IMG/VR virus record: IMGVR_UViG_3300032053_000035
Source: an uncultured virus (IMG/VR IMGVR_UViG_3300032053_000035)
Taxonomy: Duplodnaviria > Heunggongvirae > Uroviricota > Caudoviricetes
DNA length: 64,000 nucleotides
Reading direction: 5' to 3' (one strand)
The notes beneath the pieces were generated by a model, which saw only the letters and a list, made by a program, of their open reading frames with translations, did no database searches and was not told the origin of the DNA. Positions 1 to 63,055 of the stretch are shown in pieces (the first letter of the stretch is position 1; every line of letters begins with the position of its first letter). A program made the position numbers and the translations under genes.

Positions 1-721
1 CGCCGTCAGAGTTCAGAAAGTCTGATGTCAGAAGTTCGGCCTTTTCAACATCGCTAGGCTTCCCTATGAACATTCCTGAACCGTCTGACCCTTCCAACGC
101 TTCATCAACTGCCCACGCGATACCAAAATGATCCAAGGCTTCGGCCAGCTGCTCCATAAAGCTGGTGCCCCAAGGATGTTCAACAACAAAATTTACTGGG
201 CCGTTGGACAGCACTAGTATCGCTTTTTCCGCATCAGCCTTTAGGATTTTTCCGTTGCTTACCGATACGCCAGCCTTGGTCAGCTTTTCTTTCGCAGCGG
301 CCATAGTCGCCAGGGTGCTGGCTTTTGCCTGATTGGCCATTTTCTTGAGCATCTTTGCGTCATCGCTATTGCCGGTCAATTTTTCTATGTATTTGGCAGT
401 CAATGGTGGAATGACGCCTCTGAACCACCCGTGTTTGAATGCCGTACCAGTGCCAAGTTGTAGTTGTATCACTAAATCAAAGTTAGCCTTTTTAGACCTT
501 TTGCCAATGACATTATACGGAATAAAGACATTATCTATTCGTCCTTCAAAATTGCTTATCGTGTCGCCATAGCTAGGAAAGTCAGAATCGAGGACCTTGT
601 TATTTAATTCCATAGCCACTTGATATTGCTCGGGAGAGACCACTACATACACAGTATCTCTGTATTCCATCTGCTCATCTTCGCATACAGCGTCGCCAAA
701 TCCAATTTTGTCGGTGCTCAT
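1..721 (-). CDS. Hypothetical protein (runs off the window), paralog of 14334..14900, with an internal AGVSVSNGKILKAD tag motif
   Basis: Not in the ORF track; translated by hand. ATG at 721 overlaps the TGA of the upstream gene (ATGA), and the frame is open to the window edge: MSTDKIGFGDAVCEDEQMEY...VFIPY...IPPLTAKYIEKL...KLTKAGVSVSNGKILKADAEKAILVLSN... Confidence 0.85.
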   Translation of the reverse strand, partial: MSTDKIGFGDAVCEDEQMEYRDTVYVVVSPEQYQVAMELNNKVLDSDFPSYGDTISNFEGRIDNVFIPYNVIGKRSKKANFDLVIQLQLGTGTAFKHGWFRGVIPPLTAKYIEKLTGNSDDAKMLKKMANQAKASTLATMAAAKEKLTKAGVSVSNGKILKADAEKAILVLSNGPVNFVVEHPWGTSFMEQLAEALDHFGIAWAVDEALEGSDGSGMFIGKPSDVEKAELLTSDFLNSDG

Positions 722-1704
722 ATTTGTCCTTCTATTGCGCTGCGGTTCCTAGTTTTGATACTGCCCTTGACCAACATGTACTTTTTCTCAGTTCTGCCAA
801 CCCCAAAATAACGATGTGCCCAGTAAGCCGGTTGGGAGAAGATGTCCTTGCTGTATATAGGACTTTTCTTGTAACCAAACCCGACCAGCTCAATGTTAAG
901 GCTACTTAGCTCCTTGTCTCTCCTGACCGGCGTTTGGCTGGTTGGCGACTGATACTTTATCTCGTTTCTAAACTGCCGCAAGTCAGGCGTACCAGAGTTA
1001 AGGTAGATGAGCAGGTTGCACATGAGCCTAATGTGGTCCTCAAACCCATCTTCCAGCCGAAACACCTCTTCTTGTGCGGTAAACCCTTCCTTCACTTTGT
1101 ACTCAGCGCCCACAAATAAGTCCTTTAGTACCTCGGCACCATTCCACGGAATCAGGGCGAAGTTGGTGTGGCCCTGTTTATCTACCCACGCCAAGGACAG
1201 TATGTTGGTGTCCTGCTGTACGTCTACTACTCTGGCACCAGTCATACTACCGCGCCAATCTTCCGACCCGAAAAACTGGGTGCCTGGACCAGAGAAGAAA
1301 TAGAAACCGTCAAAGCTGTCCCCTTGCGAATCGGAAACCAACTTTGGCAATTGGCAAAACCCACACAGGTTGGTTGGTAAGGAGTCAGTCATCATACCGT
1401 TAAGAGGGACTTTGGCAAAAACATCAAAAAATTCTGGGGACACCATGAAAACTTTCTTACCGGAAACCAACCAGTGTGCGTGGCACTTGGTTAGTGCTTT
1501 GACCGGCATATCAGACAGCACACTCAGGCAGCCCAATTCCTCTACGCGGGAGACGTTATCAGGAATAGCAAACGTGTTACTTACTTTGCCACCGTCCATA
1601 GTGCCTTCGCAAAAGAGTCTTACTATATTTAGGAAGGCCTTGTTGTGGTTATCTGATGCGGTCGCCCTTTGGATTAGTTCAGGCAGCACCTTTACTACTC
1701 TCAT
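718..1704 (-). CDS. Hypothetical phage protein (328 aa)
   Basis: Long ORF with GGAG RBS. The C-terminal AYWAHRYFGVGRTEKKYMLVKG resembles the GHW..Q..G.GR motif common in uncharacterised phage proteins. Confidence 0.8.
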   Translation of the reverse strand: MRVVKVLPELIQRATASDNHNKAFLNIVRLFCEGTMDGGKVSNTFAIPDNVSRVEELGCLSVLSDMPVKALTKCHAHWLVSGKKVFMVSPEFFDVFAKVPLNGMMTDSLPTNLCGFCQLPKLVSDSQGDSFDGFYFFSGPGTQFFGSEDWRGSMTGARVVDVQQDTNILSLAWVDKQGHTNFALIPWNGAEVLKDLFVGAEYKVKEGFTAQEEVFRLEDGFEDHIRLMCNLLIYLNSGTPDLRQFRNEIKYQSPTSQTPVRRDKELSSLNIELVGFGYKKSPIYSKDIFSQPAYWAHRYFGVGRTEKKYMLVKGSIKTRNRSAIEGQI

Positions 1705-1750
1705 TGTCCACTCCTACCGATAAAAATACAAGTATTAACCGATGCACGCT

Positions 1751-1779
1751 ATTTTAGCATAAGTGACACGTTGTGTCAA
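1751..1779 (-). promoter_or_regulatory. Sigma70-like promoter with overlapping palindromic operator
   Basis: Minus strand reads TTGACA-N17-TAAAAT with an extended -10 TG. The inverted repeat TGACAC-N3-GTGTCA (1764-1778) overlaps the -35 box. Confidence 0.7.
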
Positions 1780-1810
1780 CCGTATGTTTTCGCGACATAA
1801 AGGGCTTACT

Positions 1811-2499: not shown

Positions 2500-2511
2500 T
2501 GGAGAAAAGTT

Positions 2512-2718: not shown

Positions 2719-2731
2719 GCCACGGCGCTCA

Positions 2732-3031: not shown

Positions 3032-3138
3032 AGCGTGAAGTCCTATATCATAAGGTCAATGGCTAACACTTTTTATGCTAAGACCACACGCCACTAGATA
3101 CTATTTGCTATTCATTTTCCCTTAGGTGCTGCTGGCGG

Positions 3139-11276: not shown

Positions 11277-11747
11277 TCAGTCCCCAGCCCAGAATAGGCG
11301 ACCTTGGCCACGACCGTCTTCACATCCTGTCGAGCAACCGCTGGTGCCTTCGACATTGGCCTCGACCCTTTTTCTGGTTCTTTCGCGAAGCCACATTAAC
11401 GCTTCGTCTAGCTTTGTGATTGCCATAGCGTTTTCGCGGCAGGGGAAGTTTTTGTTTAGCCCTTCAATGACCAACTTAGCTGTTTCCACAATGGTGTCAA
11501 CTTGGCAACCGTTGACCCCAACCTCTTTGATTGGTCCATTCTGGACTGTGAACGAAATGCTGTTCTTGTCCTTCCTGAGGTAAATGTGGTTGGTCGGACG
11601 GATTTCTGCTTCGAACCACTCATAGTCCATAGCCCCTGTGCTAACGAACTTCTCTGGGTGCTTATCCCGCAAATCGTCCATAACCACTAAGTCAAATCCA
11701 CCGATCTTACTCACGCCTGCAAGTGTCTCTAATGCCATAGTCATCAA
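11277..11747 (-). CDS. tad1: Tad1-family anti-Thoeris/anti-CBASS nucleotide-sponge protein
   Basis: VQNGPIKEVGVNGCQVD...PCRENAMAITKLDEALMWLRERT..R.EANVEGT matches the Tad1 pattern Q.GPIKE.GVNG...CREN...IT.L..A..W...RT..R...NVEGT. Confidence 0.85.
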   Translation of the reverse strand: MMTMALETLAGVSKIGGFDLVVMDDLRDKHPEKFVSTGAMDYEWFEAEIRPTNHIYLRKDKNSISFTVQNGPIKEVGVNGCQVDTIVETAKLVIEGLNKNFPCRENAMAITKLDEALMWLRERTRKRVEANVEGTSGCSTGCEDGRGQGRLFWAGD

Positions 11748-11756
11748 CTCCTAATG

Positions 11757-14174
11757 TTAAGCCAAGCCGCCTCTAACCTTCATGATGGCCAGCCTTTTTT
11801 CTGGTATTGGGAAGCCGCCAGCCATAGTGTAGCAGTAAATGCCATTACGACTAGACTCATACACGCCTTGGTGAATAGTAAAGCTTCTATTTTCGCCCTG
11901 AAGTATCCGCTCAAGCGTGGAAAACGCTAAGTCTATATGACTTTGTGGCAACAGCGACAGGATCTTCTCTGGTGCACACAAAATGGCAGCTAGGTGGGTA
12001 GACTTAGTAAGATCCACCTCGGTCAGCATTGTCCGCTCCAGGTTAAGCCGCAGGCCGTCAGACAGGTCGGTGTCTTTTTCGTAAGAGAGGAGCTTAGTCG
12101 AGCCAAAGGTGATTAAGCCAGACTCCAACATGGTTGTGTAGTCAGCCCTGTCGAACGTGACATATGAAGACTTTTGAGCCGCCAAAATGTTGAAAACGTC
12201 AAACAGACCTAGTATCTGCTTGTTGGCCACTTGCCAAAAAGACTTAGCGCTGACAGCGCCTAGCATGTTTTGGATAACATCGTTATCTACTATTACGCAA
12301 GGCGAAATCTCCTTAGTTTCTAGCAGCACTTTGATCTTTTGCATGGCTAAATATGCATTGCTTTGGGCTTTCCCGCCTTCTGACTTCTTGGGAAGGGCTA
12401 CAATAAGGCCAATTTTTGGCTCCTTGCCGATCTCCTCCATGTACCTAACAGCCTTTTTGATAAGCGGCAATATGCCACCACTGCCACTGTTGTGTACTAA
12501 AGTTAAGGCGCCATTGCCAGCAAAATAATTTGAATTCCCAGAAACAGTAAAGTCAACAAATTCAATGGCTGATAATTTTTCTATCGCGTCAATAGCGAAA
12601 AGGGCGCCATAAATCTTCTTCAATAAACATTCGTCTTTGAGCAGCGGGGCAAATTCGTCTTCAAACCTACCATATGAGGCATTGCACACATTGTTCGCAT
12701 AGTTATAGTATTTAGGTTTCTGCTTGAACAGTCTTTCTATTTGATCGTACTTAATCGGAAAAATACTATTTGACGTGTACCCAATTGGCATTACGGTCTC
12801 ACTATCTCCAAACTCTTTCCGCAAAGCCTCAGTCAAATTCAGGCAAAATGATGCCTTTGTGTCATTGTCAAAAGCGAATATTCTAAGGCGACCAAGCGGC
12901 CTCTCATTTTTGCGTACTGAAGTCTTAACTGAGTACGTACACTTGATACCATGCGCGTTGCATAGATCTCGTAAACTTTCAACAAATACCAAGTCAACCA
13001 TAGTCAGATCTATTGAGTTACGCTGCGGCCTAACGTAGCCATCAGCACTGTGAACACCCGCCAAGTATGCCAAGAATGATTTTTTATTTAGATCATAAAC
13101 AAACTCAGGGATGACCAGATTGCCCTTAATAGGACGAAGCGGACCATACGCATCAACAAACAAATCTATTAGTTGTTGACCATACGCATACACCTCAAAA
13201 GATGCTTGCGTTTTAGATTTGCTAATTGCTACTGAACTAGCACCAAATTCTAAGCACAACTCTTTAGCTTTCAACAGATTTTCCTCAGACGCGTCATAGA
13301 ACCTAATTACGTTGATTTTGGTTGGGGTAGAATATAAGCCATCTTTGCGCCATTTGAAGTTACCATTACCAGCGAAATACCCGAGAAGCCACAGTTTGTC
13401 CTTGTTATAGTCAACGCCAAATTCTAGCTGCCCTTTATAATGAACCAAAACATCATTAACTGAAAGGTCTTTTGCCAACTTCTCAACAACAGTGTCAGTG
13501 CTGCTATTGTATACAAAAACCGGATGGTTCTCACTACACGTCAAGTGACCAAACCTGGTTGATATTTTGATGGCTGGCTTTGCAGGAACCGACCAAACAC
13601 GCTCAAGTGGCTTCCATTCAACAATGCCATCGGCACGCATGGAAGCCACATTAAGTTCCTCAGTTAAGGCAAAACCGGTCTCACCATTGTCCCCCTCATC
13701 GCATGGCACTTCCTGCGCATAGCTATCCAAGATAGAGCCAGCTGTCATCAACCCAGATGAAGTCAACACCATTGAGGTTGGCGCAACGCAACCCCCTCCG
13801 AGGCTTGATGTAATCATGATGCGGTCGATGTCGTCACCAAACGAGGCTCTCATTAGGTTAAACACCGATTCAGAACCCTTTTCTACGGCCTCCTGACCCT
13901 GGCCCTGGTCCTTCCCAGCGCCGCCTTTGGTAGTGAGAACCAGTTGGCGATTGACCGGAAGTTCCAAACCAAGGAAATCTTGTGCGGTAGTATTGATGGC
14001 ACAAACACGGCGGTAGCCGAGTGAGTAAAAGGTGTCTACCATTCTAGAACCAGCCTGGCCAGCCCCAATAATTCCGAATTTGACAGCCAGCAACTTAGTA
14101 TCTTCTTCTACCGCAATTCCTGATTGGCCAGAGGACAAATCTTCTATATCCGGTAGATCAAAATCGTTTGACAT
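11757..14174 (-). CDS. FtsZ/tubulin-family GTPase (PhuZ/CetZ-like) precursor containing an intein
   Basis: Motifs IIGAGQAGSR, AINT, GGAGKD, SLGGG|SGSG, VDND and the T7-like FDRADY. The predicted spliced product is 371 aa. Confidence 0.9.
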   Translation of the reverse strand: MSNDFDLPDIEDLSSGQSGIAVEEDTKLLAVKFGIIGAGQAGSRMVDTFYSLGYRRVCAINTTAQDFLGLELPVNRQLVLTTKGGAGKDQGQGQEAVEKGSESVFNLMRASFGDDIDRIMITSSLGGGCVAPTSMVLTSSGLMTAGSILDSYAQEVPCDEGDNGETGFALTEELNVASMRADGIVEWKPLERVWSVPAKPAIKISTRFGHLTCSENHPVFVYNSSTDTVVEKLAKDLSVNDVLVHYKGQLEFGVDYNKDKLWLLGYFAGNGNFKWRKDGLYSTPTKINVIRFYDASEENLLKAKELCLEFGASSVAISKSKTQASFEVYAYGQQLIDLFVDAYGPLRPIKGNLVIPEFVYDLNKKSFLAYLAGVHSADGYVRPQRNSIDLTMVDLVFVESLRDLCNAHGIKCTYSVKTSVRKNERPLGRLRIFAFDNDTKASFCLNLTEALRKEFGDSETVMPIGYTSNSIFPIKYDQIERLFKQKPKYYNYANNVCNASYGRFEDEFAPLLKDECLLKKIYGALFAIDAIEKLSAIEFVDFTVSGNSNYFAGNGALTLVHNSGSGGILPLIKKAVRYMEEIGKEPKIGLIVALPKKSEGGKAQSNAYLAMQKIKVLLETKEISPCVIVDNDVIQNMLGAVSAKSFWQVANKQILGLFDVFNILAAQKSSYVTFDRADYTTMLESGLITFGSTKLLSYEKDTDLSDGLRLNLERTMLTEVDLTKSTHLAAILCAPEKILSLLPQSHIDLAFSTLERILQGENRSFTIHQGVYESSRNGIYCYTMAGGFPIPEKRLAIMKVRGGLA
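12489..13790 (-). mobile_element. Intein with LAGLIDADG homing endonuclease (residues 129-562, 434 aa)
   Basis: Starts C-VAPTSMVLT, has block B TCSENHPVF, LAGLIDADG motifs LLGYFAGNG and YLAGVHSADG, and block F DFTV; ends LVHN followed by Ser+1. Confidence 0.92.
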
Positions 14175-14333
14175 AACGTATCTCCTTTTACTGTTGCAAT
14201 TTTTTATGGAAAGCGCTTGTTACAAGATGCAGCCAATGTGGCCTAATCTGGTTGGCTGTAAAAGCTTTGGCTTGTAGCTTGCGCTTATTTTACATTAGTT
14301 AGATATGGTTCAACATAACTAGGCGGACGGCCC

Positions 14334-14900
14334 ATGAGCTTACAAAACGCGTTTATAGCTATTGCTGCTGCGAACAAAATTGGCTTTGGTAGCGTGCTTG
14401 ACAGAGACAGCTAAACCTTATACAAAGGAAATCTTTGGGCCGAAACCACTCCTGGACAATACAAAATAGCCTTAGAATTAAATAAACACTACTTCGGCAA
14501 TAGTAAGCCAGATTATGGTGACGCTAGGGAAATGGAAGGTGAGTTGAGCGGCGTGTTTATTCCTTATGAAGAGGTAAGCAAATCGGCCAAGAAGAAAGAT
14601 TTTAACTACCTTATGCATCTAATTATTTACGACAATTTTAATTTTGGTTCTACCGGCATTCCTCCGCTCACACTCAAGTATATCGGAAAGCTCAGCGGTA
14701 AGGACAAGATGACCCAAGAACTTAGGAAAATGGCCGGTATTAACATCACCACAATTAATGGGTCCATCAGCAGTTACGTTTCCGCCTACATCAGCACAAA
14801 AGCTATTACTGAGGCAGCTATCAAAGCCGGTATAACAGTATCAAATGGCAAAATTAAGGACTCAGACGTGCCCAAGCTGCTAGCAGCAATAGATGATTAA
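14334..14900 (+). pseudogene. Paralog of 1..721 with a C-terminal tag motif, interrupted by an in-frame TAA at 14412-14414
   Basis: ATG 14334 is in frame with ORF 14532. Sequence on both sides of the TAA aligns to the paralog (KIGFG...QY..A.ELN...YGD...EG...VFIPY...IPPLT.KYI.KL). Confidence 0.75.
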
Positions 14901-15396
14901 GAACTTCTTTGATCAGTTTTACGGAGTGATATTGCCAAACGGTTTCGTATCTGGCGGGGCCGCTTTGGCACTCGCGTGGAACTACGAGCCTAGTGACATA
15001 GACATTTACCCGCGTACCAAGGAACATGCAGCAGCTCTTTTGTTTGATCTGGTAGGGGCTGGCCTTGTTGACCTACAGTATCGGTTCTGCCTAAAGTATG
15101 AATGCGTACAAGGCCAGTTAGGCGGATACAAGTGCCAAGTGTTTGCAGACGACTATAGAAAACTGTTTGATATTAAATGCTGCCAAGCTTGGGTTAACTC
15201 AGAGTTGCAGGTTATGGATATAGGTCCTATAGAGGAAATACCGAATAATGTGATTAGGAACAGCACGAAGTCGCGCATAAACAAGTACCAAAATAGGTAC
15301 AAGGCATACGAGGTACAACATGAACGAAAAGACTTTGACAGCCGAGTTAGGCAAACTTGGTATAGACGTGAAGGACGGAAAAGTAAGAAGAGCTGA
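14893..15396 (+). CDS. Nucleotidyltransferase-like protein (polyA polymerase/CCA head-domain type)
   Basis: FVSGGAAL...SDIDIY (GG and DxD motifs), followed later by FD...CQ. Confidence 0.65.
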   Translation: MIKNFFDQFYGVILPNGFVSGGAALALAWNYEPSDIDIYPRTKEHAAALLFDLVGAGLVDLQYRFCLKYECVQGQLGGYKCQVFADDYRKLFDIKCCQAWVNSELQVMDIGPIEEIPNNVIRNSTKSRINKYQNRYKAYEVQHERKDFDSRVRQTWYRREGRKSKKS

Positions 15397-15571
15397 CGTC
15401 AAAGCAGTTATCGACAACGTTGTTGGAAGTCTCGTAAACGTGACCATCATCACGAGCTGGCTTATAATCATACCAAGCTCACCCAGCTTTTTGTTTACCG
15501 CAGCCAGCGAGTCGGACTCAGACCAGTCGCCATCAGCAGCTATTCGCACAAGGTTCTTAAGCATGGCTTAG
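15320..15571 (+). CDS. Small protein with N-terminal tag motif; possible frameshift near 15428
   Basis: LGKLGIDVKDGKVRRADVKAVI; GAGG RBS. An alternative frame continues SRKRDHHHEL...AAHNLT to TAA 15618. Confidence 0.65.
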   Translation: MNEKTLTAELGKLGIDVKDGKVRRADVKAVIDNVVGSLVNVTIITSWLIIIPSSPSFLFTAASESDSDQSPSAAIRTRFLSMA

Positions 15572-15644: not shown

Positions 15645-16238
15645 ATGGACTCAGGAAATTATCAGTTATCGCCAAAGGTGCATATGTTTATTAGTAGGTA
15701 CACGTTGGCCAAAATAAAAGCTGACGAAATGGAATACCCTCCTTTCGCGTCCGATATTTTTAACGCGGTTGTCTGGAATGCTATGCTTTGGATGAGCGAG
15801 GACACATTTCAATTTGCGACTGACCTGATTACTTATGCAAAAAGAAATCCAAACTGCGCGTGGGTTACCAGCGACGAAGACGAAGACATTATGTACATGT
15901 TCCCAGACGTGGATAAAGCGCTAGCTAGCCTAGACAAGGTTGTTAAGGAGCATACTGGACCAGGTGGGCACCTTGCTGGACATATTGAGAAGAATTGGTA
16001 TGCCAAGGTTTACCTTGTCTGCCATTTGTAGCCCCACCGTACGGTTAGAGGGTTGGAATGGTACGCTAAGCAAATGGGACAACTGCCACCATTTAGGCCA
16101 GGAATAGGCCAAGTGTGGGTAACTTTGGTAGATGACAGCGATAATAGTGAGGTGCCAAAAGGCATGCTGTTCATCGATGCTAGTGACCAGGAGTGGGCCG
16201 ACCGCCTAGTAGGTTGGCTGGCGGAGTGGGATAGTTGA
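15645..16238 (+). pseudogene. Hypothetical protein split by an in-frame TAG (16029-16031) within a 63-nt degenerate duplication
   Basis: ORFs 15645..16031 and 16053..16238 share a frame; WYAK is encoded twice, 63 nt apart. Confidence 0.5.
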
Positions 16239-16279: not shown

Positions 16280-16795
16280 ATGAGAACAATCAAAATCATA
16301 CTTTCAAAAGCCGGTATAGAAGTAAAGAATGGCAAGATAAAATTGTCCGATGTGGCGAAGGCAGTGAAGGTTATCAGCGCCACAGAGACCGATCCGGCTT
16401 TCATGGGCCAGTTTATCGACGCCTTAGCCACGAAAGGCTACAAGGTGGATGGCGGCCCTAACATGTGGCGTAGCCCTAACGTTGATGACCATACGTCTAC
16501 CAATTGTCGTGACAATGGAAATGGCAAGCTGACGGTCAAAATAAGATTTAGTTCAGACGGCAAGAAAGTTCTGCAAGACATTGAATACGACGACCCAGAA
16601 GATTCAGACTCTTGGGGTTTTGATTACGTTATAAAGGACGAACGAGAGGTTAAGGCAATAGTGTCGTCTGTGTGCGGTGACATAGGAACAACAGTATCTG
16701 ACTTTGGAATTTTTCAGAACATAGCCACCTTTGTGATCAACGCCCCTGACGGATTAGACATTCCTAGAGGACGTTCTAAGAGAGACTGGCGGTGA
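16280..16795 (+). CDS. Hypothetical protein with N-terminal tag motif
   Basis: LSKAGIEVKNGKIKLSDVAKAVKVIS followed by an unrelated acidic region. Confidence 0.85.
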   Translation: MRTIKIILSKAGIEVKNGKIKLSDVAKAVKVISATETDPAFMGQFIDALATKGYKVDGGPNMWRSPNVDDHTSTNCRDNGNGKLTVKIRFSSDGKKVLQDIEYDDPEDSDSWGFDYVIKDEREVKAIVSSVCGDIGTTVSDFGIFQNIATFVINAPDGLDIPRGRSKRDWR

Positions 16796-23493: not shown

Positions 23494-23519
23494 ATCAAAC
23501 CCTCTGAGTGTCTGCCTAG

Positions 23520-30236: not shown

Positions 30237-30632
30237 ATGGAAAAGAATGAGCTACACGAAAAGCTAGTCAACGCTGGCATAGAAGTTAAGAACAATTGTG
30301 TGCGTAAATCAGACGTTGTGCTAGCTGAGCAAATACTGAACACAATCGACGGCTGGGAACACGATAGCAACAGTGGCTCATGGGTTTACGACCCAGAAGG
30401 TATCCTATTGGAGGATGGCACAGCATCAGTGCCGACAGTTGTGTTGGAAAATGGCGGCTACAACTATTACTGCCGAGGTGACGACTACCCATCTGGTTCC
30501 GTTACAACAAAAGAATTTATCGACTTAGACATGAGCGAAGAAGAAGCAGAGGAAGCTGCACTAGCAGCGGCAAAAGAAGCCGCTCTGGAAGGCAGTGAAA
30601 ACATGGACCCTGACACACAAAATATTTGGTAA
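30237..30632 (+). CDS. Acidic hypothetical protein with N-terminal tag motif
   Basis: LVNAGIEVKNNCVRKSDVVLAEQILN; AGGAG RBS. Confidence 0.8.
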   Translation: MEKNELHEKLVNAGIEVKNNCVRKSDVVLAEQILNTIDGWEHDSNSGSWVYDPEGILLEDGTASVPTVVLENGGYNYYCRGDDYPSGSVTTKEFIDLDMSEEEAEEAALAAAKEAALEGSENMDPDTQNIW

Positions 30633-39480: not shown

Positions 39481-39991
39481 CAAGGTGAACATTGACGAGA
39501 TTTCTGGCGCGTTCATGTTATCGAGGCCAACCTTTGCCGACGCCAGAGGGGAATTTTCTGAGCTATCCCGTACAGATTGGGATCTGCCGGAGTTTAAACA
39601 GACCAACATAGTGAAGAGTAATGCCATGGTGGCAAGGGGGCTGCATTACCAGGCCGAGGTGCCGCAGGGTAAGTTAGTCACATGTGTCAGCGGATCAATT
39701 ATAGATTTTGTATTAGACCTAAGGCCCTCTTCGCCCACACGTGGTACCTTGTACCACGTCCGCCTAAGACCTAACGGGCATAGCATTTATGTGCCAGAAG
39801 GGTGTGCTCATGGTTACGTCACGATGGAACCAGCCGTTGTGCATTATGCATGCACAGAGTTGTACGTCGGCGCATGGAACAGCGGGTACAATATGGCAGA
39901 TTTAATGCGGCGCAACAACATACCGTATATGTTAGCGTTACAATTTAGTAAGCAAGACGAGGGGTGGCCAAAGTATGATCAAAATGAATGA
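39473..39991 (+). CDS. rmlC: dTDP-4-dehydrorhamnose 3,5-epimerase
   Basis: DARGEFSE, RGLHYQ...QGKLV, DLRPSSPT and YVPEGCAHG. Confidence 0.92.
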   Translation: MVDKVNIDEISGAFMLSRPTFADARGEFSELSRTDWDLPEFKQTNIVKSNAMVARGLHYQAEVPQGKLVTCVSGSIIDFVLDLRPSSPTRGTLYHVRLRPNGHSIYVPEGCAHGYVTMEPAVVHYACTELYVGAWNSGYNMADLMRRNNIPYMLALQFSKQDEGWPKYDQNE

Positions 39992-40364
39992 GCTTTCTGG
40001 TGTCTGTGTGCTAGTGGTAGACGATTCGGAAGACCTAGCTGAACTAACCAGACATTGGTTTGCCAGCGTTGGTGCGAAAGTTGTAACAGTATCTTCTGGC
40101 GCGGAAGCGCTAGTGGCCGTAGCCTCTCAGCAATGTCACCTAATCGTTATGGACATTGGGATGCCATTCCTTGACGGTTTCGCAGCAGCCGAACAAGTTA
40201 GAGGACTTGGCTACCGCATGCCAATCATAGGGGTAACTGCAAGCGTTTTTGACGACAGCAGGTGGACACCAAACTTTGATGCCCATTTCTTAAAACCGGT
40301 TAATAAACAGTTATTGATTGCTGCTGCTCATGCTCTTACTCATAAAACCTTGCCGACTGCCTAG
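39975..40364 (+). CDS. Single-domain response regulator (CheY-like receiver)
   Basis: VLVVDD, MDIGMP.LDG (phospho-Asp), GVTA and LKP. Confidence 0.9.
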   Translation: MIKMNELSGVCVLVVDDSEDLAELTRHWFASVGAKVVTVSSGAEALVAVASQQCHLIVMDIGMPFLDGFAAAEQVRGLGYRMPIIGVTASVFDDSRWTPNFDAHFLKPVNKQLLIAAAHALTHKTLPTA

Positions 40365-45800: not shown

Positions 45801-47201
45801 TTACTTAATTACTCTTATTGACACATAGTCAGCGGAATACACCGACGTTTCGTTCCTAGCAAACTCCATAGGCTCTATTTGTTGCAGCGACCCTGTGGCG
45901 CGTCTGAACTCGGTCAGCTTGAAGCTAAGCACTCCGGACACCTTGGTAGCCACGTCTTGCCTTACTGTTTCTGGGTAGACAATCTCGGTGAATGCCGTAA
46001 AGGTAAAGTACGCAGCCAAATAGTTAATAACATTTTGCTCCACTTCGTCAGGCGAGTACGATGCCAGCGCCTGAACCTCGCCGGTAATCTTAGGATTTAC
46101 CACGAAGGCGGCTCGCGATAGCATATCGGTGTTAAACAGGTAAGTCTCGCCATCAAGGAACACCTGATTTTGCACTTGGTTAAGTATGTCGTTATACGAG
46201 TACTCAATATACACAATATCGCCAGCCATCAATGGCGTGTCTAGCACCACTAAGTCAGTAGCCTTTATCGAGCTACCATATTCACTTGAGGTGTCCTTAA
46301 CCAAGGAGTAGCCTACGGCACCAGATATACCGTTAACAGTCAGAACGCTGATGGCAGTGGCTGGCACTTCGTCTAGTGTGATGACGGTTTGCCCAGAAAT
46401 GGCAATGATGGTCTGATTTGCCGTTTTTGGTATTGATCCTATTACATAAATGTCTAACGCTGGCCCAGCAATTAGCCTAGTGAATTCCTGCTCAAAAGGC
46501 TGTACTATTGCCACGTCCAATACTGTTTCCGGAAGGGCGTTCATTATGGAGTTGGACAGTCCACCTGGAGAGCCAAGGTTAATGCCAAGTAACGATTGTT
46601 TAAGACGGTTAGATTGCGAAGTAATAGACTCGGAGTCTAACCCTCCCTGACTCTTCACTCGGTTTTCGGTAGAGTCTATGCCAATAACTGGCGTAGTAAT
46701 AGTCTGCACTCTGTATTTTGGCAGATTGTAGGCGGTGCCAGAACCTGTTGCTTGCACCAGTATGCCTATTTCGTAAGTACTTCGCGACGGGTTGTAGAAC
46801 GACGCAGCCGACGCCACCGTGATCGTGCCTGGCGAAATAACTGTGTAAACTAAGTCGCCAGTGCTGTTTGAAACCAAGGTCCCAGCGGGAATGGTGATAT
46901 CAGCTGTTGGTTTTGTGAAGCGCATGAAGTATTGAACATGTTGGGCGTACGTGCCAGCGCCTGGCGTGCTGCCGTAATTGGCCAAACTAGCCCTGATTTC
47001 GTCATCGGTAGCTGCTTGGTCGAATTGCAAGGTGAACAAGGTTCGCAACGAGTCCGTTTCTTGTTCGACGATCGCAAGTTGTCCGGCCTGCGGCCTCGTC
47101 ATGACGTCCGCAATTGGACCTTGCTCCGTGTCTAGCGTGTTGTCCGACTGTTCTATTGAGCTTCTCAGTTCCTGTTCTATATCTGCTGCCGACCTAGCCA
47201 T
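45801..47201 (-). CDS. Baseplate J-like protein
   Basis: ITIPAGTLV, VQATGSGTAYN and GGLDSES motifs. Confidence 0.85.
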   Translation of the reverse strand: MARSAADIEQELRSSIEQSDNTLDTEQGPIADVMTRPQAGQLAIVEQETDSLRTLFTLQFDQAATDDEIRASLANYGSTPGAGTYAQHVQYFMRFTKPTADITIPAGTLVSNSTGDLVYTVISPGTITVASAASFYNPSRSTYEIGILVQATGSGTAYNLPKYRVQTITTPVIGIDSTENRVKSQGGLDSESITSQSNRLKQSLLGINLGSPGGLSNSIMNALPETVLDVAIVQPFEQEFTRLIAGPALDIYVIGSIPKTANQTIIAISGQTVITLDEVPATAISVLTVNGISGAVGYSLVKDTSSEYGSSIKATDLVVLDTPLMAGDIVYIEYSYNDILNQVQNQVFLDGETYLFNTDMLSRAAFVVNPKITGEVQALASYSPDEVEQNVINYLAAYFTFTAFTEIVYPETVRQDVATKVSGVLSFKLTEFRRATGSLQQIEPMEFARNETSVYSADYVSIRVIK

Positions 47202-52530: not shown

Positions 52531-54495
52531 TCACTTCTCAGGCTCCCAGTTCATATACTCAGGGTGTTCCTTACCAAGCCGATTCCATTTGTTGAGACAA
52601 GCTGTGCAGGTCGGTAGGTCTTTGGTCCACTGAGTGCGGTCATCCATAATGTTCCTGACCTTCTTACAAAGAGAGCGACCTGTGTCCCAATTGAAGTCCG
52701 GAGTCACAAGCACCGCATGAGTTAGCATCTCATTGCCTGGACGCTCAACCTTATAGGCACCTCCAAAGACCCCAGTCGTTATGAGTTTAGTCTTTTCGGT
52801 TTCGCGCAGAGCTAATACTTGGTTGATTATTTTCAAACTGTCCTGGCGCAATCGCCCATCAAAGCCCTTATTAGCGATTAACCCAACAAGGTTCTTTTTG
52901 CTTAATATCATATGGCTAAGAATTATTTCTGATTCGTCATGCAATTCTGAACACTGGGCAACCATGTTAATATTGACAATCACATCACTTATGCCTGGGG
53001 TACATTCAAAAATAGCCCCGTATGGATAACCAGTGTCAAACATGAAGTTAGATGCCACCGCCTTGCTTTCGGACCAGGATTCTACAGGCTGGGTTCTTAG
53101 GTGCTTACCGGCGTCCAGAGCTGCCACAGTTTCTTCGCTGGCGGCCACACCACGATAAACTTTTCCTCCCAGGACTTTACGGTATTTAACAGGCAGCATG
53201 TTTTTCAAGGCTAGCATTTCTAACCGTACTTGGTCATTTGAAGAGCTTTCTACCCAGCGGCAAATCGTAGAAAGTTCATCGTCGGTGAGAGCTTCATTTT
53301 TACTTCCGGTAAGGTTGGAATTACCAGTGTTGTCGCTATCCCACTTGGTAGTATCAGCAGATGAGCCAATGAAACCGTGCCCTTCTTGTTTATTAATCTC
53401 CTCAGCCAAGTCCTTATACAGGTCTCCGTGATTGACGTTTTCCTTATCAGCAGTATCGCCAAACATTTCGTATATGTAGTAATGAACAACTTCATGCGCC
53501 AGAATCTGGCGTAAATCTTCCGACACCAGATACTTGCTGTTTAGCGTGATATACGTGTGACCGGTTTCATTGTTATGTCTCGTGGAGGCTACAAATGGAG
53601 GAGAGTGTATAATGACAACTTCCGGGCGGCCTTCGCAATCAGGGAAATATTCGCGCAGTAGCTCGGCAGCTAGTGCACTGGCCTCGTAGCCTAGGCTGTG
53701 TGCTGTTATTTCCAGGTCCGTAAAGTCTAATAGGTGCATATCGAGATTAAGTTGCTCATCTCGCAGTGGGAGCTTACTGCCAGTAGATGTTATTAGGTAG
53801 GTGGTGCCGCCAAACGACGTCTCCAGCCCAACAATATTGTCTTTGCTACCTATTGTGATGCCCGTGTCCAACCCAAGTACTCTGATTCTCTTGTAGTTAT
53901 CAAAGTAGGCTGGGAAGGTGGAGGTAGAAAAGTCATAAGTCTCATTGTTGTCTGTAATTTGCTTAAATTTTAATTGCTTGCCTTTAGAACGTAGCTGCGC
54001 TAATTTTGGCATAGTTTGCCAAATGACGTCATCAGCAAATTCCATTATAAGCTCATCATCACAAAACACCTGCATTTTGCCACCGAAAGCCACGTTGGTG
54101 GCTTCTGATTCGTGTTGTGCAAGAAGCCACCCAAACAGAATCGACTCTGAATAATCATCCATGGGAGGAGGTTGGTCTGGGTTAAAATACACCAGTTCGA
54201 GGTGGTCAAATTCGCCATCAGGATCACCAAGCGAGGTCAGTGGTAGCCCAACCTCAATGTCAACTCTGTAGACTCTATTGTCATAAGCGTCAAACAAGTG
54301 CGCTATTTTGGCAATCTCCGTTACACCTGACTCTTCTCTCAGCTCTCTTCGCAGGGCAACTTCTTCCGTCTCCCCGTCGTCTACTTTGCCGCCAATTAGT
54401 CCATACTGACCCAGAGCCGTAACGCCAAACAGAAGCCTGCCATGTCTGTCAACAGCAATCGCTCTCACTCGTTGCATGGCAGACTCCGTGCTCAC
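52531..54495 (-). CDS. Multidomain protein: Nudix hydrolase + SprT-like zinc protease + R-S-E ART + C-terminal Cys/His finger
   Basis: Nudix box GGKVDDGETEEVALRRELREESG; LAHEVVH...HG; VYRG...SWS...ESE; HAV...LC...CTAC. Confidence 0.8.
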   Translation of the reverse strand: MSTESAMQRVRAIAVDRHGRLLFGVTALGQYGLIGGKVDDGETEEVALRRELREESGVTEIAKIAHLFDAYDNRVYRVDIEVGLPLTSLGDPDGEFDHLELVYFNPDQPPPMDDYSESILFGWLLAQHESEATNVAFGGKMQVFCDDELIMEFADDVIWQTMPKLAQLRSKGKQLKFKQITDNNETYDFSTSTFPAYFDNYKRIRVLGLDTGITIGSKDNIVGLETSFGGTTYLITSTGSKLPLRDEQLNLDMHLLDFTDLEITAHSLGYEASALAAELLREYFPDCEGRPEVVIIHSPPFVASTRHNNETGHTYITLNSKYLVSEDLRQILAHEVVHYYIYEMFGDTADKENVNHGDLYKDLAEEINKQEGHGFIGSSADTTKWDSDNTGNSNLTGSKNEALTDDELSTICRWVESSSNDQVRLEMLALKNMLPVKYRKVLGGKVYRGVAASEETVAALDAGKHLRTQPVESWSESKAVASNFMFDTGYPYGAIFECTPGISDVIVNINMVAQCSELHDESEIILSHMILSKKNLVGLIANKGFDGRLRQDSLKIINQVLALRETEKTKLITTGVFGGAYKVERPGNEMLTHAVLVTPDFNWDTGRSLCKKVRNIMDDRTQWTKDLPTCTACLNKWNRLGKEHPEYMNWEPEK

Positions 54496-58093: not shown

Positions 58094-59056
58094 CTACTGT
58101 TTGCTAATGCTGTGCTTGCATAACAGGCACAACACAACAGTAGCATACTCCCTTGGATAAATAACATTCTGTCTCATGCTAGCTCGGAAACTTATGATTT
58201 GCGGCCAAACATCTGCCAAAAGTGACGGAGTAGTTATCATGGCGCTGTCCAGAGCTTCGTCTAATAGCGCTACGTCGTATGGCGATACATCGGGCCTATT
58301 TATTTGCGCTATATGGCCATAGTTAGCAGCCCTTGGATCTTGTACGATTTTTCTGATGACGTCCGACCACACGATGCGGCTCTCTTCTTCCTCAGGCATG
58401 CCGCCGTCAATTAGGGACGAGAGGTTTCGGACAGTTAGCTTTAACAGGTCCCTAGCGTGCCCACGGGAAGATTGCCATAGCGACTGTGCCGCCTCTTTTG
58501 ATACGGTCAATTCACCTCCTGATGCTAGCCTTATCAGTGTTCGTACCTCCTCCTTTGGCAACGGCTTTGTTTCTAGGCATAAACACCGAGACCTAATCTG
58601 CGGCTGAATTTTGATTGGGTCCGATGTTACCAAAATGAACATGTTGCCTCTGGGTGGCTCTTCTAGTACCTTTAGCAACGCCGTTTGGGCATGCGACACA
58701 TAGCCATGAAACTCGTCAATGATAAAGGCACGTTTGCCTCCTGCTGGGTGATATCTGGTTTGGTCTATTATTGCTCTGACGTCATCTATCTTGCGATCGT
58801 CGCCAGCATTAATTTCTTTGACATCATGACCTCTTGCTCCTGCCATATCGGCAATAATCCTGGCCAGCGTAGTTTTGCCGGTACCAAACGGGCCGGATAA
58901 CATAATAGCGGTTGGTATTGCTCCTGGGTTTTCCTCCCACATCGATACTACTGAGATAAGATGGTCCGAACCAAGTAGTTCCCCTAGGCTGGTCGGTCTA
59001 AACGCAAGTATCTTTTGCGACAGTTCGGCTATATTCACTTTGTTTTCCTTTGGCAA
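58094..59056 (-). CDS. dnaX: DNA polymerase III gamma/tau-like clamp-loader ATPase
   Basis: RP...ELLG, GPFGTGKTT, EINAG...IDDVR, IIDEFH, ALLKVLEEPP and IRSRC. Confidence 0.85.
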   Translation of the reverse strand: MPKENKVNIAELSQKILAFRPTSLGELLGSDHLISVVSMWEENPGAIPTAIMLSGPFGTGKTTLARIIADMAGARGHDVKEINAGDDRKIDDVRAIIDQTRYHPAGGKRAFIIDEFHGYVSHAQTALLKVLEEPPRGNMFILVTSDPIKIQPQIRSRCLCLETKPLPKEEVRTLIRLASGGELTVSKEAAQSLWQSSRGHARDLLKLTVRNLSSLIDGGMPEEEESRIVWSDVIRKIVQDPRAANYGHIAQINRPDVSPYDVALLDEALDSAMITTPSLLADVWPQIISFRASMRQNVIYPREYATVVLCLLCKHSISKQ

Positions 59057-59202: not shown

Positions 59203-60255
59203 ATGCTCCTAAGAGATTCCTATGTGCCAGAAACCAATGATACGTCAGACCGCATTTTGCCTTGGATACCAAAAGCAGTACCTGCCGTGGAACCAAAAGG
59301 ACTAAGGAAGCCTCGCATAGTTTACGCTCCATTCGAATACCAAAAAGCCTACGACTACTGGCACAAGCAGCAGTGCGCACACTGGCTCCACACGGAGATA
59401 AACCTGGCGCAGGACCTGCAAGACTGGAGCGTGATGTCCAGCCTGGATAAGCACGTGGTAGGATCGGTGCTCAAGGGTTTCGTCCAAGCTGAGGTAGTGA
59501 TCGGTGATTATTGGAGTACTAAGGTGTCATCTTGGTTCCCTAAACCTGAGATAGCCCTGATGTGTGGCGCCTTTGCCGCTATGGAGGGTGTCCACCAAAC
59601 TAGTTATGCCTATTTAGGCGATACCCTGGGCCTTGACGATTACAAGGCTTTCTTAGAGGAACCAACCGCTCGGAGCAAAATAGATCGACTCGTATCAGCT
59701 CCGCGTGACGCCAATAATCACGATGTCGCAGTGTCGCTAGCGTCATTTTCGGCGTTTGGCGAGGGTGTCAGCCTTTTCTCCTCTTTTGCGGTTCTTCTTC
59801 ACTTTTCCACAAGAAATATGCTAAAAGGTACCGGCCAAATCATCTCATTTTCTATAAGAGATGAGTCCTTGCATTCAGAGGCAGGATGCTGGTTGTTCAA
59901 GGAATTCATGGCGGAAGAGCCGTCCTTGTTTTCTAAGCGTCTTACTTCTGACATCAAGGAAGTGGCTCGCGAGACCGTGCGGCTCGAAGAAAACGCAATT
60001 GACCAAATATTTGACGGCGGGGCGCTTGGATCTTTTACTCCGCAGCACCTAAAAGCCTTTATTAAGTTACGTGCTAACAAAAAGCTGCAGGAAATAGGTG
60101 TACAGTCAATCTTTGGCAAAATCGATGAACAGGCGGTGGCTAAGACCATGGGCTGGTTTGATGCTATTTCAGCAGGACGTGAGCACGCGGATTTCTTTGC
60201 TACGAGAGTGACCGAGTACGGCACTACCGATGGCAATTGGGAAGAAATTTGGTAA
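59203..60255 (+). CDS. nrdB: Class I ribonucleotide reductase beta subunit
   Basis: HWLHTEI, E..H...Y, EGVSLFSSF, RDESLH and DFFATRVTEY. Confidence 0.95.
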   Translation: MLLRDSYVPETNDTSDRILPWIPKAVPAVEPKGLRKPRIVYAPFEYQKAYDYWHKQQCAHWLHTEINLAQDLQDWSVMSSLDKHVVGSVLKGFVQAEVVIGDYWSTKVSSWFPKPEIALMCGAFAAMEGVHQTSYAYLGDTLGLDDYKAFLEEPTARSKIDRLVSAPRDANNHDVAVSLASFSAFGEGVSLFSSFAVLLHFSTRNMLKGTGQIISFSIRDESLHSEAGCWLFKEFMAEEPSLFSKRLTSDIKEVARETVRLEENAIDQIFDGGALGSFTPQHLKAFIKLRANKKLQEIGVQSIFGKIDEQAVAKTMGWFDAISAGREHADFFATRVTEYGTTDGNWEEIW

Positions 60256-60275
60256 TACAATGCTAAGAGGGCATA

Positions 60276-62015
60276 ATGTCTCAGACTTGGAAACGCGGTA
60301 TCGACTATCCTGAATTTCTAACGGAAGAGGGCTTAACTACCCTTAAGGGCGGATATTTACTTGATGGCGAAACGCCTATGCAGATGTATGCCCGTGTTGC
60401 TCATGCTGCGGCTAGTAATGTGCACCGGACTGATTTAGAAGCCCCCATGTTCGAAGCCCTAATTAAGAATTGGATCTGTTTGGCGTCACCAGTTGCGGCC
60501 AATGTAGGAACCACGCGGGGGTTGCCAATATCTTGCTTTGGTTTGACAGTATCTGACAGCGTGGCTGGTATTTCAACGGCTTACAACGAACTGATGATGA
60601 TGGCAAAAGGTGGGGGCGGCGTTGGCGTTTCTTGGAGTGGCGTCCGGGGAAGGGGCACCAAGATTGCCCAAAACGGCGTCTCCAATGGCACCATTCCCTG
60701 GATCAAGGTGCAAGACTCTCTGACAGCCGCCGTTAACCAGGGGTCGGTACGCAATGGTGCCTCCTCCGTCTACATGAGCATTAACCATCCTGACATCGAA
60801 GAGTTTATTAGGATTCGTCGTCCTAAGGGTGACCCAAACACGCGCTGCCATAACCTCCATCATGCTGTTGTATACGATGACGCCTTTATGCAAAAGGTAG
60901 AGCTTGGTGATCCGGAAGCCAGGAAGCTCTGGATGGAAACTATCAAGATGAGGAAGGAGACCGGCGAGCCCTACCAGATGCACATCGACAACGTCAATCG
61001 CAAAAGGCCTAAAGCTTATGTAGACAACGGCTTGTTTGTTACTATGTCACAGCTGTGCTCAGAAATTGTTTTATACTGCGACGAGACGCATTCGTTTGTT
61101 TGCTGTTTGTCTTCTATGAACCTGGCTAGATACCATGAGTGGAAGGGAAAAGGCATCCCTTACCTAGCCACCTGGCTCCTAGACGGGGTTATGCAGGACT
61201 TCATCAACAAAGCCGAAGGCCTACCTGGCATGGAGAAAGCCAGGCGTTTCGCAGTAAAATCTCGGGCTCTTGGCCTGGGCGGATTAGGCTGGCATTCGCT
61301 GTTGCAAGCAGAGATGACACCGTTCAACTCGTTGCGAGCCAAAATACTAAACAAGGCCATCTGGAAAGAAATAAGAGAGGATGCCGACAGGGCGTCGCAG
61401 GACATGGCCAAATATTTGGGCGAAGTGGAATGGACTAAGGGCCTTGGTGAGCGACATACGCACAAATTGGCCATTGCTCCGACTACCTCCAATGCCACTA
61501 TGTCATCAGATAGTAATGGACACACCGTGTCCTTCTCCATCGAACCGTGGCCAGGCAACATATTCACGCAGAAGTCAGCAAAGGGCACGTTTGTTCGTTA
61601 CAACCCGATGTTTACCAAGATGTTGGAAGAGCACAAAAAGTTTACACCGGACGTCATCCAGTCAGTTGTGGAGGCCCGTGGCTCCGTCCAGCATTTGTCC
61701 TTTCTTACTGACGAACAACGAGAAGTATTCAAAACGGCCTATGAGATTGACCAGTTTGCTATCATTGAGCAGGCAGCAGACAGACAAGAGTTCTTGGACC
61801 AAGGCCAGTCGCTCAACCTTTTCTTTAAGGCTGACGTTGACCTAAGGTACTTCAACGCTGTCCACTTAGACGCATACAAAAAGGGTCTGTTTACACTGTA
61901 CTATGTGCGATCTGAGTCACCAATACAAGGTGATACTGGCGTATCTACTAAATCTGATGACACCGACCTATTTACCCCTATAGAACCAGCCGAGTGCACT
62001 TCCTGCGAAGGATAA
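60276..62015 (+). CDS. nrdA: Class I ribonucleotide reductase alpha subunit (short, no ATP cone)
   Basis: ISCF, GGGVG, LCSEI, AIAPT, DQGQSLN, TLYY and C-terminal CTSCEG. Confidence 0.95.
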   Translation: MSQTWKRGIDYPEFLTEEGLTTLKGGYLLDGETPMQMYARVAHAAASNVHRTDLEAPMFEALIKNWICLASPVAANVGTTRGLPISCFGLTVSDSVAGISTAYNELMMMAKGGGGVGVSWSGVRGRGTKIAQNGVSNGTIPWIKVQDSLTAAVNQGSVRNGASSVYMSINHPDIEEFIRIRRPKGDPNTRCHNLHHAVVYDDAFMQKVELGDPEARKLWMETIKMRKETGEPYQMHIDNVNRKRPKAYVDNGLFVTMSQLCSEIVLYCDETHSFVCCLSSMNLARYHEWKGKGIPYLATWLLDGVMQDFINKAEGLPGMEKARRFAVKSRALGLGGLGWHSLLQAEMTPFNSLRAKILNKAIWKEIREDADRASQDMAKYLGEVEWTKGLGERHTHKLAIAPTTSNATMSSDSNGHTVSFSIEPWPGNIFTQKSAKGTFVRYNPMFTKMLEEHKKFTPDVIQSVVEARGSVQHLSFLTDEQREVFKTAYEIDQFAIIEQAADRQEFLDQGQSLNLFFKADVDLRYFNAVHLDAYKKGLFTLYYVRSESPIQGDTGVSTKSDDTDLFTPIEPAECTSCEG

Positions 62016-62137
62016 GCCACGATAACACAGTATTAACTTTCTGGTAGGAGATATTTCTCCTGCCAGATTTCCGTCTGCTTGCCATTCGATAAAACACGCT
62101 AACCGAGCTGTTACTTCGGAGTGACTTAGGAGACAAA

Positions 62138-62842
62138 ATGGATGGAAACTTAGCCAAAACCAAAAAGAAAAAGCGCAAGACTGCAGCTGAGAAACGAGCC
62201 ATAGCAGCGGCCAAGGCGGCTGTTAGCCAAGCGGAAGCAAAAGCTGTCTCACTCGCCCTAGCGGAAAACGATAACGGCCAAGCCATTGCCGTAGAAGTAC
62301 ACAAAACACCGGTTGCCAAGAAGAAGCGGAAAACTGCTGCTGAGAGACGAGAGGCAGCTAAGATAAGGGCTACTGCAGAGGCTGAGGCGGCAAGTAAGCC
62401 AGTTAGCCAAGGTCCAAAAATATCTCAGTGGCTCAGCCTGTTCGCTAAGGACAGGTTGACTGACGCCGAGCTTGCCACGATAGAAAACGATTATGTTATT
62501 CCTAGCGAAGTCATGTACGACCCAAGGGTGGAGTTGGAAAGGACCGCTAGGCGCAAGTTGGCCACGTTAGCTTTTCAGCAGCGCTCCGTGCAGCAGTCCT
62601 TGGCTTCCATTGGTGGGAGTGATATTCCGGTATTGGACGAGTTCTTCCCGAGCCCGGAGGCCATTTTAGTAGCCGCCGACAGGCTAAGCCGTGATGCAGC
62701 AGTCCTTAGGCAAGTCAAGGGCAAGGCAGACAAGACGCACGTGCAGCTGGACCGTATGTCTGCTTTTCTTATGGCTTGGCATAAGTTTGTGACAGCAGAG
62801 GTAAGGAAAACAAAAGTGGCTATTGGCTACTCACAAGATTAG
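62138..62842 (+). CDS. Hypothetical protein with duplicated basic KKKRKTAAExR motif
   Basis: AGGAG RBS; the motif occurs twice in the N-terminal 75 aa. Confidence 0.8.
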   Translation: MDGNLAKTKKKKRKTAAEKRAIAAAKAAVSQAEAKAVSLALAENDNGQAIAVEVHKTPVAKKKRKTAAERREAAKIRATAEAEAASKPVSQGPKISQWLSLFAKDRLTDAELATIENDYVIPSEVMYDPRVELERTARRKLATLAFQQRSVQQSLASIGGSDIPVLDEFFPSPEAILVAADRLSRDAAVLRQVKGKADKTHVQLDRMSAFLMAWHKFVTAEVRKTKVAIGYSQD

Positions 62843-62866
62843 TGTTATGTTAACGGAGATGGTTAC

Positions 62867-63055
62867 ATGAAGAAAGCTAGTTTAATGTTGATCAAGGCTG
62901 GTATACAGGTAAGCAATGGAAAAATCAGAAAGGATGACTTGGCAAGAGCAACGTTTGTGTTATCCAACGATCTGAGCCTTCCGGAGTCTATCGCAGCAGA
63001 CGCAGATGTTAGTATAACTGTGACGATAAGTGGTCTACCAAGTCCGAGTAAGTAA
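62867..63055 (+). CDS. Small protein consisting mostly of the tag motif
   Basis: LIKAGIQVSNGKIRKDDLARATFVLSN; GGAG RBS. Confidence 0.75.
   Translation: MKKASLMLIKAGIQVSNGKIRKDDLARATFVLSNDLSLPESIAADADVSITVTISGLPSPSK

Follow-up and report, generated by a model that had tools for sequence, protein, structure and literature searches.

A small portable domain shared by otherwise unrelated proteins of a large uncultured tailed phage

Introduction

The PSBD, a domain of ~35 residues, is described as consisting of two helices with a small hydrophobic core, its partners being bound by a basic face (PMC6270654). Lsr2 is reported to use a Q/RGR hook for reading the minor groove (PMC6936261). The internal proteins of T-even phages are described as highly diverse, with only their targeting sequence conserved (PMC3012670). 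The present analysis concerns a domain of ~32 residues, referred to here as the tag, six copies of which were found in the uncultured virus record IMGVR_UViG_3300032053_000035 of IMG/VR (Caudoviricetes). The window, meaning the whole stretch of DNA that was analysed, is 64,000 nucleotides long. A preliminary description of the window had compared the tag with these three systems and had proposed it to be a modular label fused to different cargoes.

Six copies of the tag in the window

A regular expression applied to the six-frame translation of the window gave exactly six matches, at 245-283 on the minus strand and at 14817-14855, 15347-15385, 16301-16339, 30264-30302 and 62888-62926 on the plus strand. 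A hidden Markov model (HMM) built from the six copies scored these same copies at about 51-62 bits, with the next best of 1824 frame segments at 5.6 bits. This comparison is circular, as the HMM was trained on those six copies, and two independent controls were added. In 40 shuffled windows the HMM reached a maximum of 9.5 bits, and against 1,835,955,588 proteins it returned 40 at E<=1e-3, including six at E<=1e-10. Thirty-nine of these 40 profile matches are regarded as credible, P0024 having been dropped as a repeat protein with stretches scoring only 7.7-10.3 bits. Four of the 40 (P0002, P0005, P0006 and P0007) are open reading frames (ORFs) of the window itself, and P0003 is the full form, of 376 amino acids (aa), of the first tagged gene, ORF1. 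All six copies of the preliminary description were recovered where it had placed them; the shared tag itself stood, but its length, given there as ~27 aa, did not, the domain being ~32 aa. The tags and the genes which carry them are as follows.

203..295, minus strand: tag copy 1, internal in ORF1 (HMM 52.7 bits; residues 143-173 of P0003)
2..721, minus strand: ORF1, 240 codons from the 5' end of a gene of 376 aa running off the window start (full length in the related loci L001 and L002 and in P0003)
14805..14897, plus strand: tag copy 2, C-terminal in ORF2 (HMM 53.0 bits)
15335..15430, plus strand: tag copy 3, N-terminal in ORF3 (15320-15571) (HMM 51.2 bits; 94% identical to the tag of P0013)
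16289..16381, plus strand: tag copy 4, N-terminal in ORF4 (HMM 51.9 bits; AlphaFold2 models)
16280..16795, plus strand: ORF4, identical with P0006, 171 aa, consisting of tag, linker and alpha/beta cargo
30252..30347, plus strand: tag copy 5, N-terminal in ORF5 (HMM 59.3 bits)
30237-30632, plus strand: ORF5, 131 aa, with an acidic body (homolog P0011, 72.5% over 102 aa)
62876..62971, plus strand: tag copy 6, N-terminal in ORF6 (HMM 61.6 bits)
62867-63055, plus strand: ORF6, 62 aa, with GGAG 8 nt 5' of the ATG

Four of the copies are thus N-terminal, one is internal and one C-terminal, with five on the plus strand and one on the minus strand. When the tags were masked, only ORF1 and ORF2 were found to be related among the six proteins (E 1e-11; one other pair gave E 3.7), which upholds the earlier statement that the flanking sequences are unrelated save for one paralog pair. 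ORF2 is a paralog of ORF1, with 33% identity over 182 aa (E 9e-31). The net charge outside the tag is, in order, -21, +3, -1, -6, -21 and 0; the cargoes had been described as often acidic, which is true by net charge of three of the six proteins but not of the other three. Within the window the tags share 29-52% protein identity and a mean DNA column identity of 56% and are old copies of each other.

Predicted structure and conservation of the tag

The tag has a first helix ending in L-x-K-A-G, a tight beta-hairpin of the pattern GI-x-V-K-N/D-G-K-I/V, an S/A-D-V cap and a second helix. An AlphaFold2 model of 47 residues was obtained from the tag alignment A2, consisting of 29 tag-bearing sequences. 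Its mean pLDDT is 78.3, rising to 91-92 over residues 11-30, with a helix at residues 2-10, hairpin strands at 15-16 and 19-20 and a helix at 22-36. In the model of the whole of ORF4 (171 aa) the shape of the tag is kept and is followed by residues 36-39 with a pLDDT of <50 and by a weakly predicted alpha/beta body. On these models, the tag is probably an independently folding mini-domain of ~32 residues.

Over 46 tags the near-fixed columns are L5 (44/46), G9 (44/46), V12 (43/46), K16 (40/46) and D21 (44/45), with the hydrophobic positions and the N/D-G turn also nearly fixed. Lysine or arginine occupies columns 7, 13, 16, 18 and 19, on and around the hairpin, in >=72% of the tags. The net charge of the tag is positive in 35 of the 39 proteins; for the rest of the protein it is <=-5 in 17 of them and >=+5 in five.

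Search for a described family or fold

No family lying over the tag was found with Pfam and PHROGs in the six window proteins, nor with Pfam, PHROGs and NCBIfam in 35-36 relatives or in the 29 alignment members at E<=10, a threshold at which the HMMER filters drop many Pfam matches above about 0.1. A sequence search of the PDB with the tag profile gave a best E of 0.33. For the tag model, Foldseek against the PDB gave nothing at E<=1e-3 (best 0.58), VIA-align against 48,161 chains gave nothing at Z>=5, and a search of BFVD gave a best E of 1.1. The ESM Atlas provided no usable feature match for the tag, with structure rows below the bar of the tool, and a full-text literature search found no occurrence of the tag motif strings. 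The comparison of the HMM with characterised domains, a match to which the preliminary description had put forward as refuting its proposal, yielded no covering family in Pfam, PHROGs, NCBIfam or the PDB sequences, and by these searches the tag is a member of no described family.

The helix and hairpin pattern had been likened to the PSBD and to Lsr2. None of the 29 members matched the PSBD model (Pfam E3_binding, PF02817) at E<=10 and none of 36 relatives did so at E<=0.01; the Pfam Lsr2 model likewise matched 0/29 members at E<=10. As for an E2 context, no lipoyl or acyltransferase domain was found in the 36 relatives. A 47-row tag profile was also compared by hhalign with AceF, Rho and CysS of E. 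coli, together with reversed AceF as a control. The best stretch of AceF, 353-364, lies on the PSBD and was given a probability of 0.4% and a score of 13.3, compared with 16.5 for reversed AceF. The best stretches in CysS (440-453, in its tail) and in Rho (28-37, in its N-terminal helix) had probabilities of 0.8% and 0.2%, respectively. As the hhalign probabilities were all <1% and reversed AceF scored higher than AceF, the likeness to the PSBD amounts to a motif of 10-14 residues from which kinship is not demonstrable, and the suggested resemblance to PSBD and Lsr2 has no support as common descent. In the fold lists of the tag model neither a PSBD nor an Lsr2 chain was present, which does not rule out such a likeness. 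The absence of an RGR hook, noted at the outset, was confirmed, N/D-G-K standing at the hook site over the 46 tags.

Only one Pfam model, CysS_C (PF23493, the C-terminal anticodon-binding domain of cysteinyl-tRNA ligase), matched more than one member (4/29, best E 0.0022). Its matches extend from helix 1 through the hairpin (positions 29-46 of the 51 in the model) and reach 18.5 bits compared with a cut-off of 23. Rho_N, SAP and HeH matched 0/29 members, and Thymopoietin 1/29 at E 0.031.

The best fold matches, at Z 3.5-4.5, were to ring-building and ACT domains and reflect only a generic alpha-beta-beta-alpha arrangement, their scores lying within what the tool rates as a common arrangement. 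These matches bear on the possibility that the tag is a self-association module, the hairpins of two tags pairing into a four-stranded sheet so that tagged proteins would form homo- or hetero-oligomers. The strand edges of the hairpin are exposed, the best weak fold matches, namely EscJ and PrgK (Z 4.5 and 4.4) and ACT domains, oligomerise, and tags are found in adjacent tandem in P0001 and P0009 and at both ends of P0017 and P0025. However, the fold matches are at noise level according to the note of the tool, and beyond the core no conserved exposed hydrophobic position is evident; self-association is considered improbable. A two-copy complex prediction of the tag (A2) scored 0.17, the mark being 0.42, a value which weighs on neither side of this question.

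Placement of the tag and its relatives

Among the 39 proteins the tag is found at the very N-terminus in 25 and near it in two, for which the gene starts may have been mis-called; it is C-terminal in four, internal in four and present in more than one copy in four. P0001 has four tags, P0009 has two adjacent ones, and P0017 and P0025 have one at each end. P0018 carries the cargo of ORF4 (58% identity) behind an internal tag, together with an extra front part of 170 residues.

A tagged gene specific to one strain was found in L001, a sister strain of 93% identity, where an extra 378-bp gene lies directly after ORF1 (L001 11151-11528). It is equivalent to P0004 (115 aa) and is absent from both L002 and the window. 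At the DNA level its tag matches the internal one of the adjoining ORF1 with 87.5% identity over 96 nt, the two bodies being unrelated, and the gene looks like a recent copying of the tag-coding segment onto a new body. Also in L001, a 328-aa gene located 5' of ORF1 is open in frame into ORF1.

The varied placement of the tag, its gene-to-gene copying and its own fold followed by a low-confidence linker bear out the portable, modular character that had been proposed for it. Duplication and recombination appear from these comparisons to have spread the tag to the start, middle and end of unrelated small accessory proteins. A different explanation would be that the tag has no shared function and that these proteins form an old paralog family, the bodies having diverged past recognition and the tag being the best-conserved stretch. 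ORF1 and ORF2 are indeed true paralogs, and the identity values of the window tags (29-52% in protein, 56% in DNA columns) are those of old copies. Nevertheless, such a family is hard to reconcile with a tag which may be N-terminal, internal or C-terminal, with the domain added ahead of the tag in P0018 compared with ORF4, with the near-identical tag on an unrelated body in L001 or with the different recognisable cargo domains of the relatives (e.g., GGACT in P0015), and it is regarded as very improbable.

Beyond the phage of the window, the tag occurs in ~30 other metagenomic protein clusters. Of the 40 clusters 30 were looked up, and all of these are from metagenomes. None of their names is informative: five are 'hypothetical protein', and one names a sulfurtransferase although the protein, of 117 aa, consists mostly of tag. 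Some tagged relatives are located on very long contigs, P0027 on one of 328,451 nt and P0043 on one of 377,292 nt. The cargo domain detected above cut-off in the relatives is GGACT in P0015 (36 bits). Weak or below-cut-off matches were to DMP19-like (DNA mimic) domains in P0015 and P0025, to Bro-N in the body of P0017 (E 0.001) and, in P0040, to LRR, to CHAP/LRAT-like (NlpC/P60-like) domains and to the minor tail protein family phrog_329 (E 2.7e-4).

Contigs of 3601 and 2192 nt, from two sequencing runs, match the window only over the 42 tag nucleotides at 15358-15399, with six differences, and have no likeness to it beyond these; further tagged genes of the same or a related phage are probably located on them. 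No match was found in IMG/VR with the tag alignment, P0003, P0040, P0043 or P0027, and a degenerate tag DNA pattern gave one chance match there and three in species genomes (two FAD-oxidoreductase-like hairpins and one 20-aa frame). A search of genome contigs with P0043 gave no match, and a homolog search with P0003 returned only P0003 itself. No RNA dataset is present among the 22 sequencing runs listed.

Strain variation at ORF2 and ORF3

ORF1, ORF4, ORF5 and ORF6 look intact. The following features concern the two remaining tagged genes.

14367..14900, plus strand: ORF2 paralog region, with ORF1 homology from near 14367 cut by an in-frame TAA at 14412-14414 (next ATG at 14532)
14330..15318: strain-specific segment of 989 bp, holding ORF2 and most of a 167-aa ORF at 14893-15396
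15421..15542: segment of 122 bp, inverted compared with other haplotypes

The 989-bp segment is skipped in contigs from three other public sediment runs (X2, X9 and X13). These contigs have a 14329->15319 joint with 'CC' in between, at depths of 14.1, 40 and 10.2. Since three other runs skip 14330-15318, the segment is taken to be a strain-specific insert.

In ORF3 the tag is intact, and its tail in the window is antisense sequence. With 15421-15542 in the other orientation, as found in contigs of two runs (X2 and X13), the tag reads in frame into the body of the ORF3 homologs P0013 and P0014, although P0014 itself may combine different paths of the assembly graph. In two runs (X2 and X9) the P0013-type junction is spelled by loose ends that follow 15420, and in one run a 7-nt insertion behind 15469 restores the frame. 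The window's own orientation is backed at the right junction by a contig of the probable source run. No inverted repeats were found at the boundaries of 15421-15542 (best 42% identity), nor is any recombinase located nearby. On both of these grounds a programmed invertase switch is considered the less likely reading, and we read the inversion as a strain rearrangement which would have scrambled ORF3.

In the same cluster of small genes the ORF at 15645-16031 ends in TAG, beyond which ~70 open, protein-like codons continue in frame (window 16029-16238), and this may be a second interrupted gene. Stop-codon recoding was considered for the two in-frame stops and rejected: the codons differ (TAA and TAG), all three stop codons are in use as gene ends (in 33, 27 and 20 of 80 ORFs) and no tRNAs were found.

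Possible function of the tag

The reading which we prefer, tentatively and with rather less than even confidence, is that this portable, undescribed mini-domain binds through its basic face one shared polyanionic target, which would be a nucleic acid and most likely the phage DNA. The conserved lysines and arginines of the hairpin, together with those where helix 2 begins, would form the basic face, by which the tagged cargoes, many of them acidic, would be brought to one place; DNA binding could also carry tagged proteins along with the DNA. Small basic modules present several to a protein typically bind polymers, and a basic domain with an acidic tail is a known layout in DNA-associated proteins. 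It is because the tag is basic and occurs in several copies per protein in some relatives that a nucleic acid is suggested, and we would rank it as the most likely target, with a virion or hub protein next.

A number of observations weigh against this reading. The proposed DNA binding is deduced solely from the charge of the tag, its copy number and a likeness, itself loose, at the level of a motif, and the tag lacks the Q/RGR hook of Lsr2. Strongly acidic cargo would oppose DNA binding, unless it is auto-inhibitory or acts as a mimic, and four of the 39 tags are net negative. No DNA-binding fold stood out in the structural comparison, the best match (Z 4.5) being to ring-building motifs of type III secretion and that to a plasmid Par DNA-binding domain reaching Z 2.8. 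Identity between orthologs was 66% in the tag vs. 80% in the cargo, 58 vs. 58% and 39 vs. 36%, so that conservation of the tag does not exceed that of the cargo. Finally, the weak NlpC/P60-like and minor tail PHROG matches of P0040 suit docking to the virion at least as well.

Alternatively, the tag may dock its different cargoes onto a single site of a phage protein hub (scaffold or capsid interior, portal or neck, or tubulin filament), the cargo being packaged and ejected or else transported, as is brought about for the T4 internal proteins by their capsid-targeting sequence (CTS). The loading into the capsid, or onto a hub or DNA, that the preliminary description had proposed is regarded as possible. 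Many unrelated cargoes are found in one genome under one label, and the tagged genes vary by strain, as do T-even internal proteins, described as having a conserved targeting sequence (PMC3012670). The below-cut-off cargo matches of P0040, P0015 and P0025 and the acidic tails would suit ejected effectors, and the model of the ORF4 cargo resembles phage neck and terminator proteins, at only Z 4.0-4.7. The PSBD, too, is described as binding its partners by a basic face (PMC6270654). The CTS lies at the extreme N-terminus of the precursor, guides the protein into the prohead and is cut off by the prohead protease. The tag is N-terminal or near it in 27 of the 39 proteins and internal, C-terminal or multi-copy in the other 12, a placement at odds with a cleavable N-terminal signal. 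Furthermore, no conserved cleavage motif is present after helix 2 in the tag alignment, and no hub candidate was found. Docking to a hub is accordingly held to be possible but doubtful.

A further proposal, which we consider unlikely, is an undescribed sorting system of the phage, in which the tag would serve as address label and a dedicated reader would load or transport changeable effectors, among them acidic DNA mimics and a wall hydrolase. Such a reader, recognising the folded 32-residue domain, might be the neck, the tubulin/FtsZ filament or a protein of the scaffold or capsid interior. The extra gene of L001 suggests that new effectors could be recruited by recombination onto the tag-coding segment.

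If the tag does direct its proteins to a single destination, it would offer a handle, short and transplantable, for finding the accessory and effector proteins of large phages from sequence, and chosen proteins could be loaded onto its target. With 39 clusters, it is also a new small domain family for the annotation of 'dark' phage genes. The gain, loss and scrambling of tagged genes between strains mark them as a fast-evolving set, as is expected for genes of host interaction.

The phage and other features of the window

The source phage is large, uncultured and tubulin/FtsZ-encoding. The G+C content of the window is even at 44-50%, and most of its ORFs have no family match. No relatives were found among GenBank phages by DNA search or tblastn. 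The locus L002 is 99% identical to the window, and its contig of 92,433 nt reaches 77 kb past the window start, from which a genome of at least ~141 kb follows. Recognisable phage-like genes are as follows.

11757-14174, minus strand: tubulin/FtsZ-family GTPase, 805 aa, split by an intein with a LAGLIDADG homing endonuclease
28818-30044: collagen-repeat tail fibre
45801-47201: Baseplate_J protein
58094-59056: clamp-loader ATPase
59203-62015: ribonucleotide reductase, both chains
elsewhere in the window: HNH endonuclease, SLT transglycosylase, RNase H, PNKP-type phosphatase and a NUDIX+SprT fusion

The start of the 805-aa ORF was assigned to the tubulin/FtsZ GTPases on the basis of Pfam Tubulin (20.8 bits, below cut-off) and an FtsZ-named PDB chain (E 3.5e-5), and its intein on the basis of Intein_splicing (35.9 bits), LAGLIDADG_3 (39.1 bits) and an intein endonuclease in the PDB (E 3.3e-7). 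Adjoining this gene, a 156-aa ORF at 11277-11747 on the minus strand matches the Acb2/Tad1 hairpin domain at 27.3 bits (cut-off 27) and may encode a sponge for defence signalling nucleotides. Cargo unusual for a phage is found within 39473-40364 and 52531-54495, namely a dTDP-sugar epimerase, a stand-alone response-regulator receiver domain and the NUDIX+SprT-like fusion of 654 aa. At 18985-27554 on the minus strand two giant ORFs (1502 and 1344 aa) adjoin each other, with no family match except for a weak CE2_N in the first.

Comparison with known systems

Of the folds compared, those of the EscJ and PrgK ring-building motifs and of ACT domains share the alpha-beta-beta-alpha order of the tag (PrgK at Z 4.4, rmsd 1.9 over 37 residues; EscJ at Z 4.5), but they possess a third strand and have no sequence similarity to it. 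The PSBD (E3_binding) resembles the tag as modelled in its ~35 residues, two helices, small hydrophobic core and basic face and in the shared G-K/R-I-x-K/R-x-D-V at the entry to helix 2. However, the helices of the tag are joined by a tight two-stranded hairpin, in contrast to the strand, helix-like turn and irregular loop of the PSBD. The C-terminal domain of Lsr2, to which the preliminary description had likened the tag, is likewise a helix-loop-helix mini-domain with G-basic-I/V before the second helix; it differs at columns 14-16, which in the tag are N (24) or D (18), G (37) and K (40) of 46, with R occurring only twice.

Large DNA viruses reportedly shuffle small N-terminal DNA-binding modules (Bro-N, KilA-N) among many bodies, as Iyer, Koonin and Aravind are said to have described in 2002. 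These modules are similar to the tag in being combined with many bodies in multi-gene families of large viruses. They belong, however, to another fold and sequence family, and the DNA binding that characterises them is only proposed for the tag.

The T4 CTS is a short linear peptide, whereas the tag is a predicted folded domain of ~32 residues which in 12/39 proteins is internal, C-terminal or multi-copy. The two are nevertheless alike in that a conserved label is carried by diverse, fast-changing small phage proteins, the tagged genes described here differing even between close strains.

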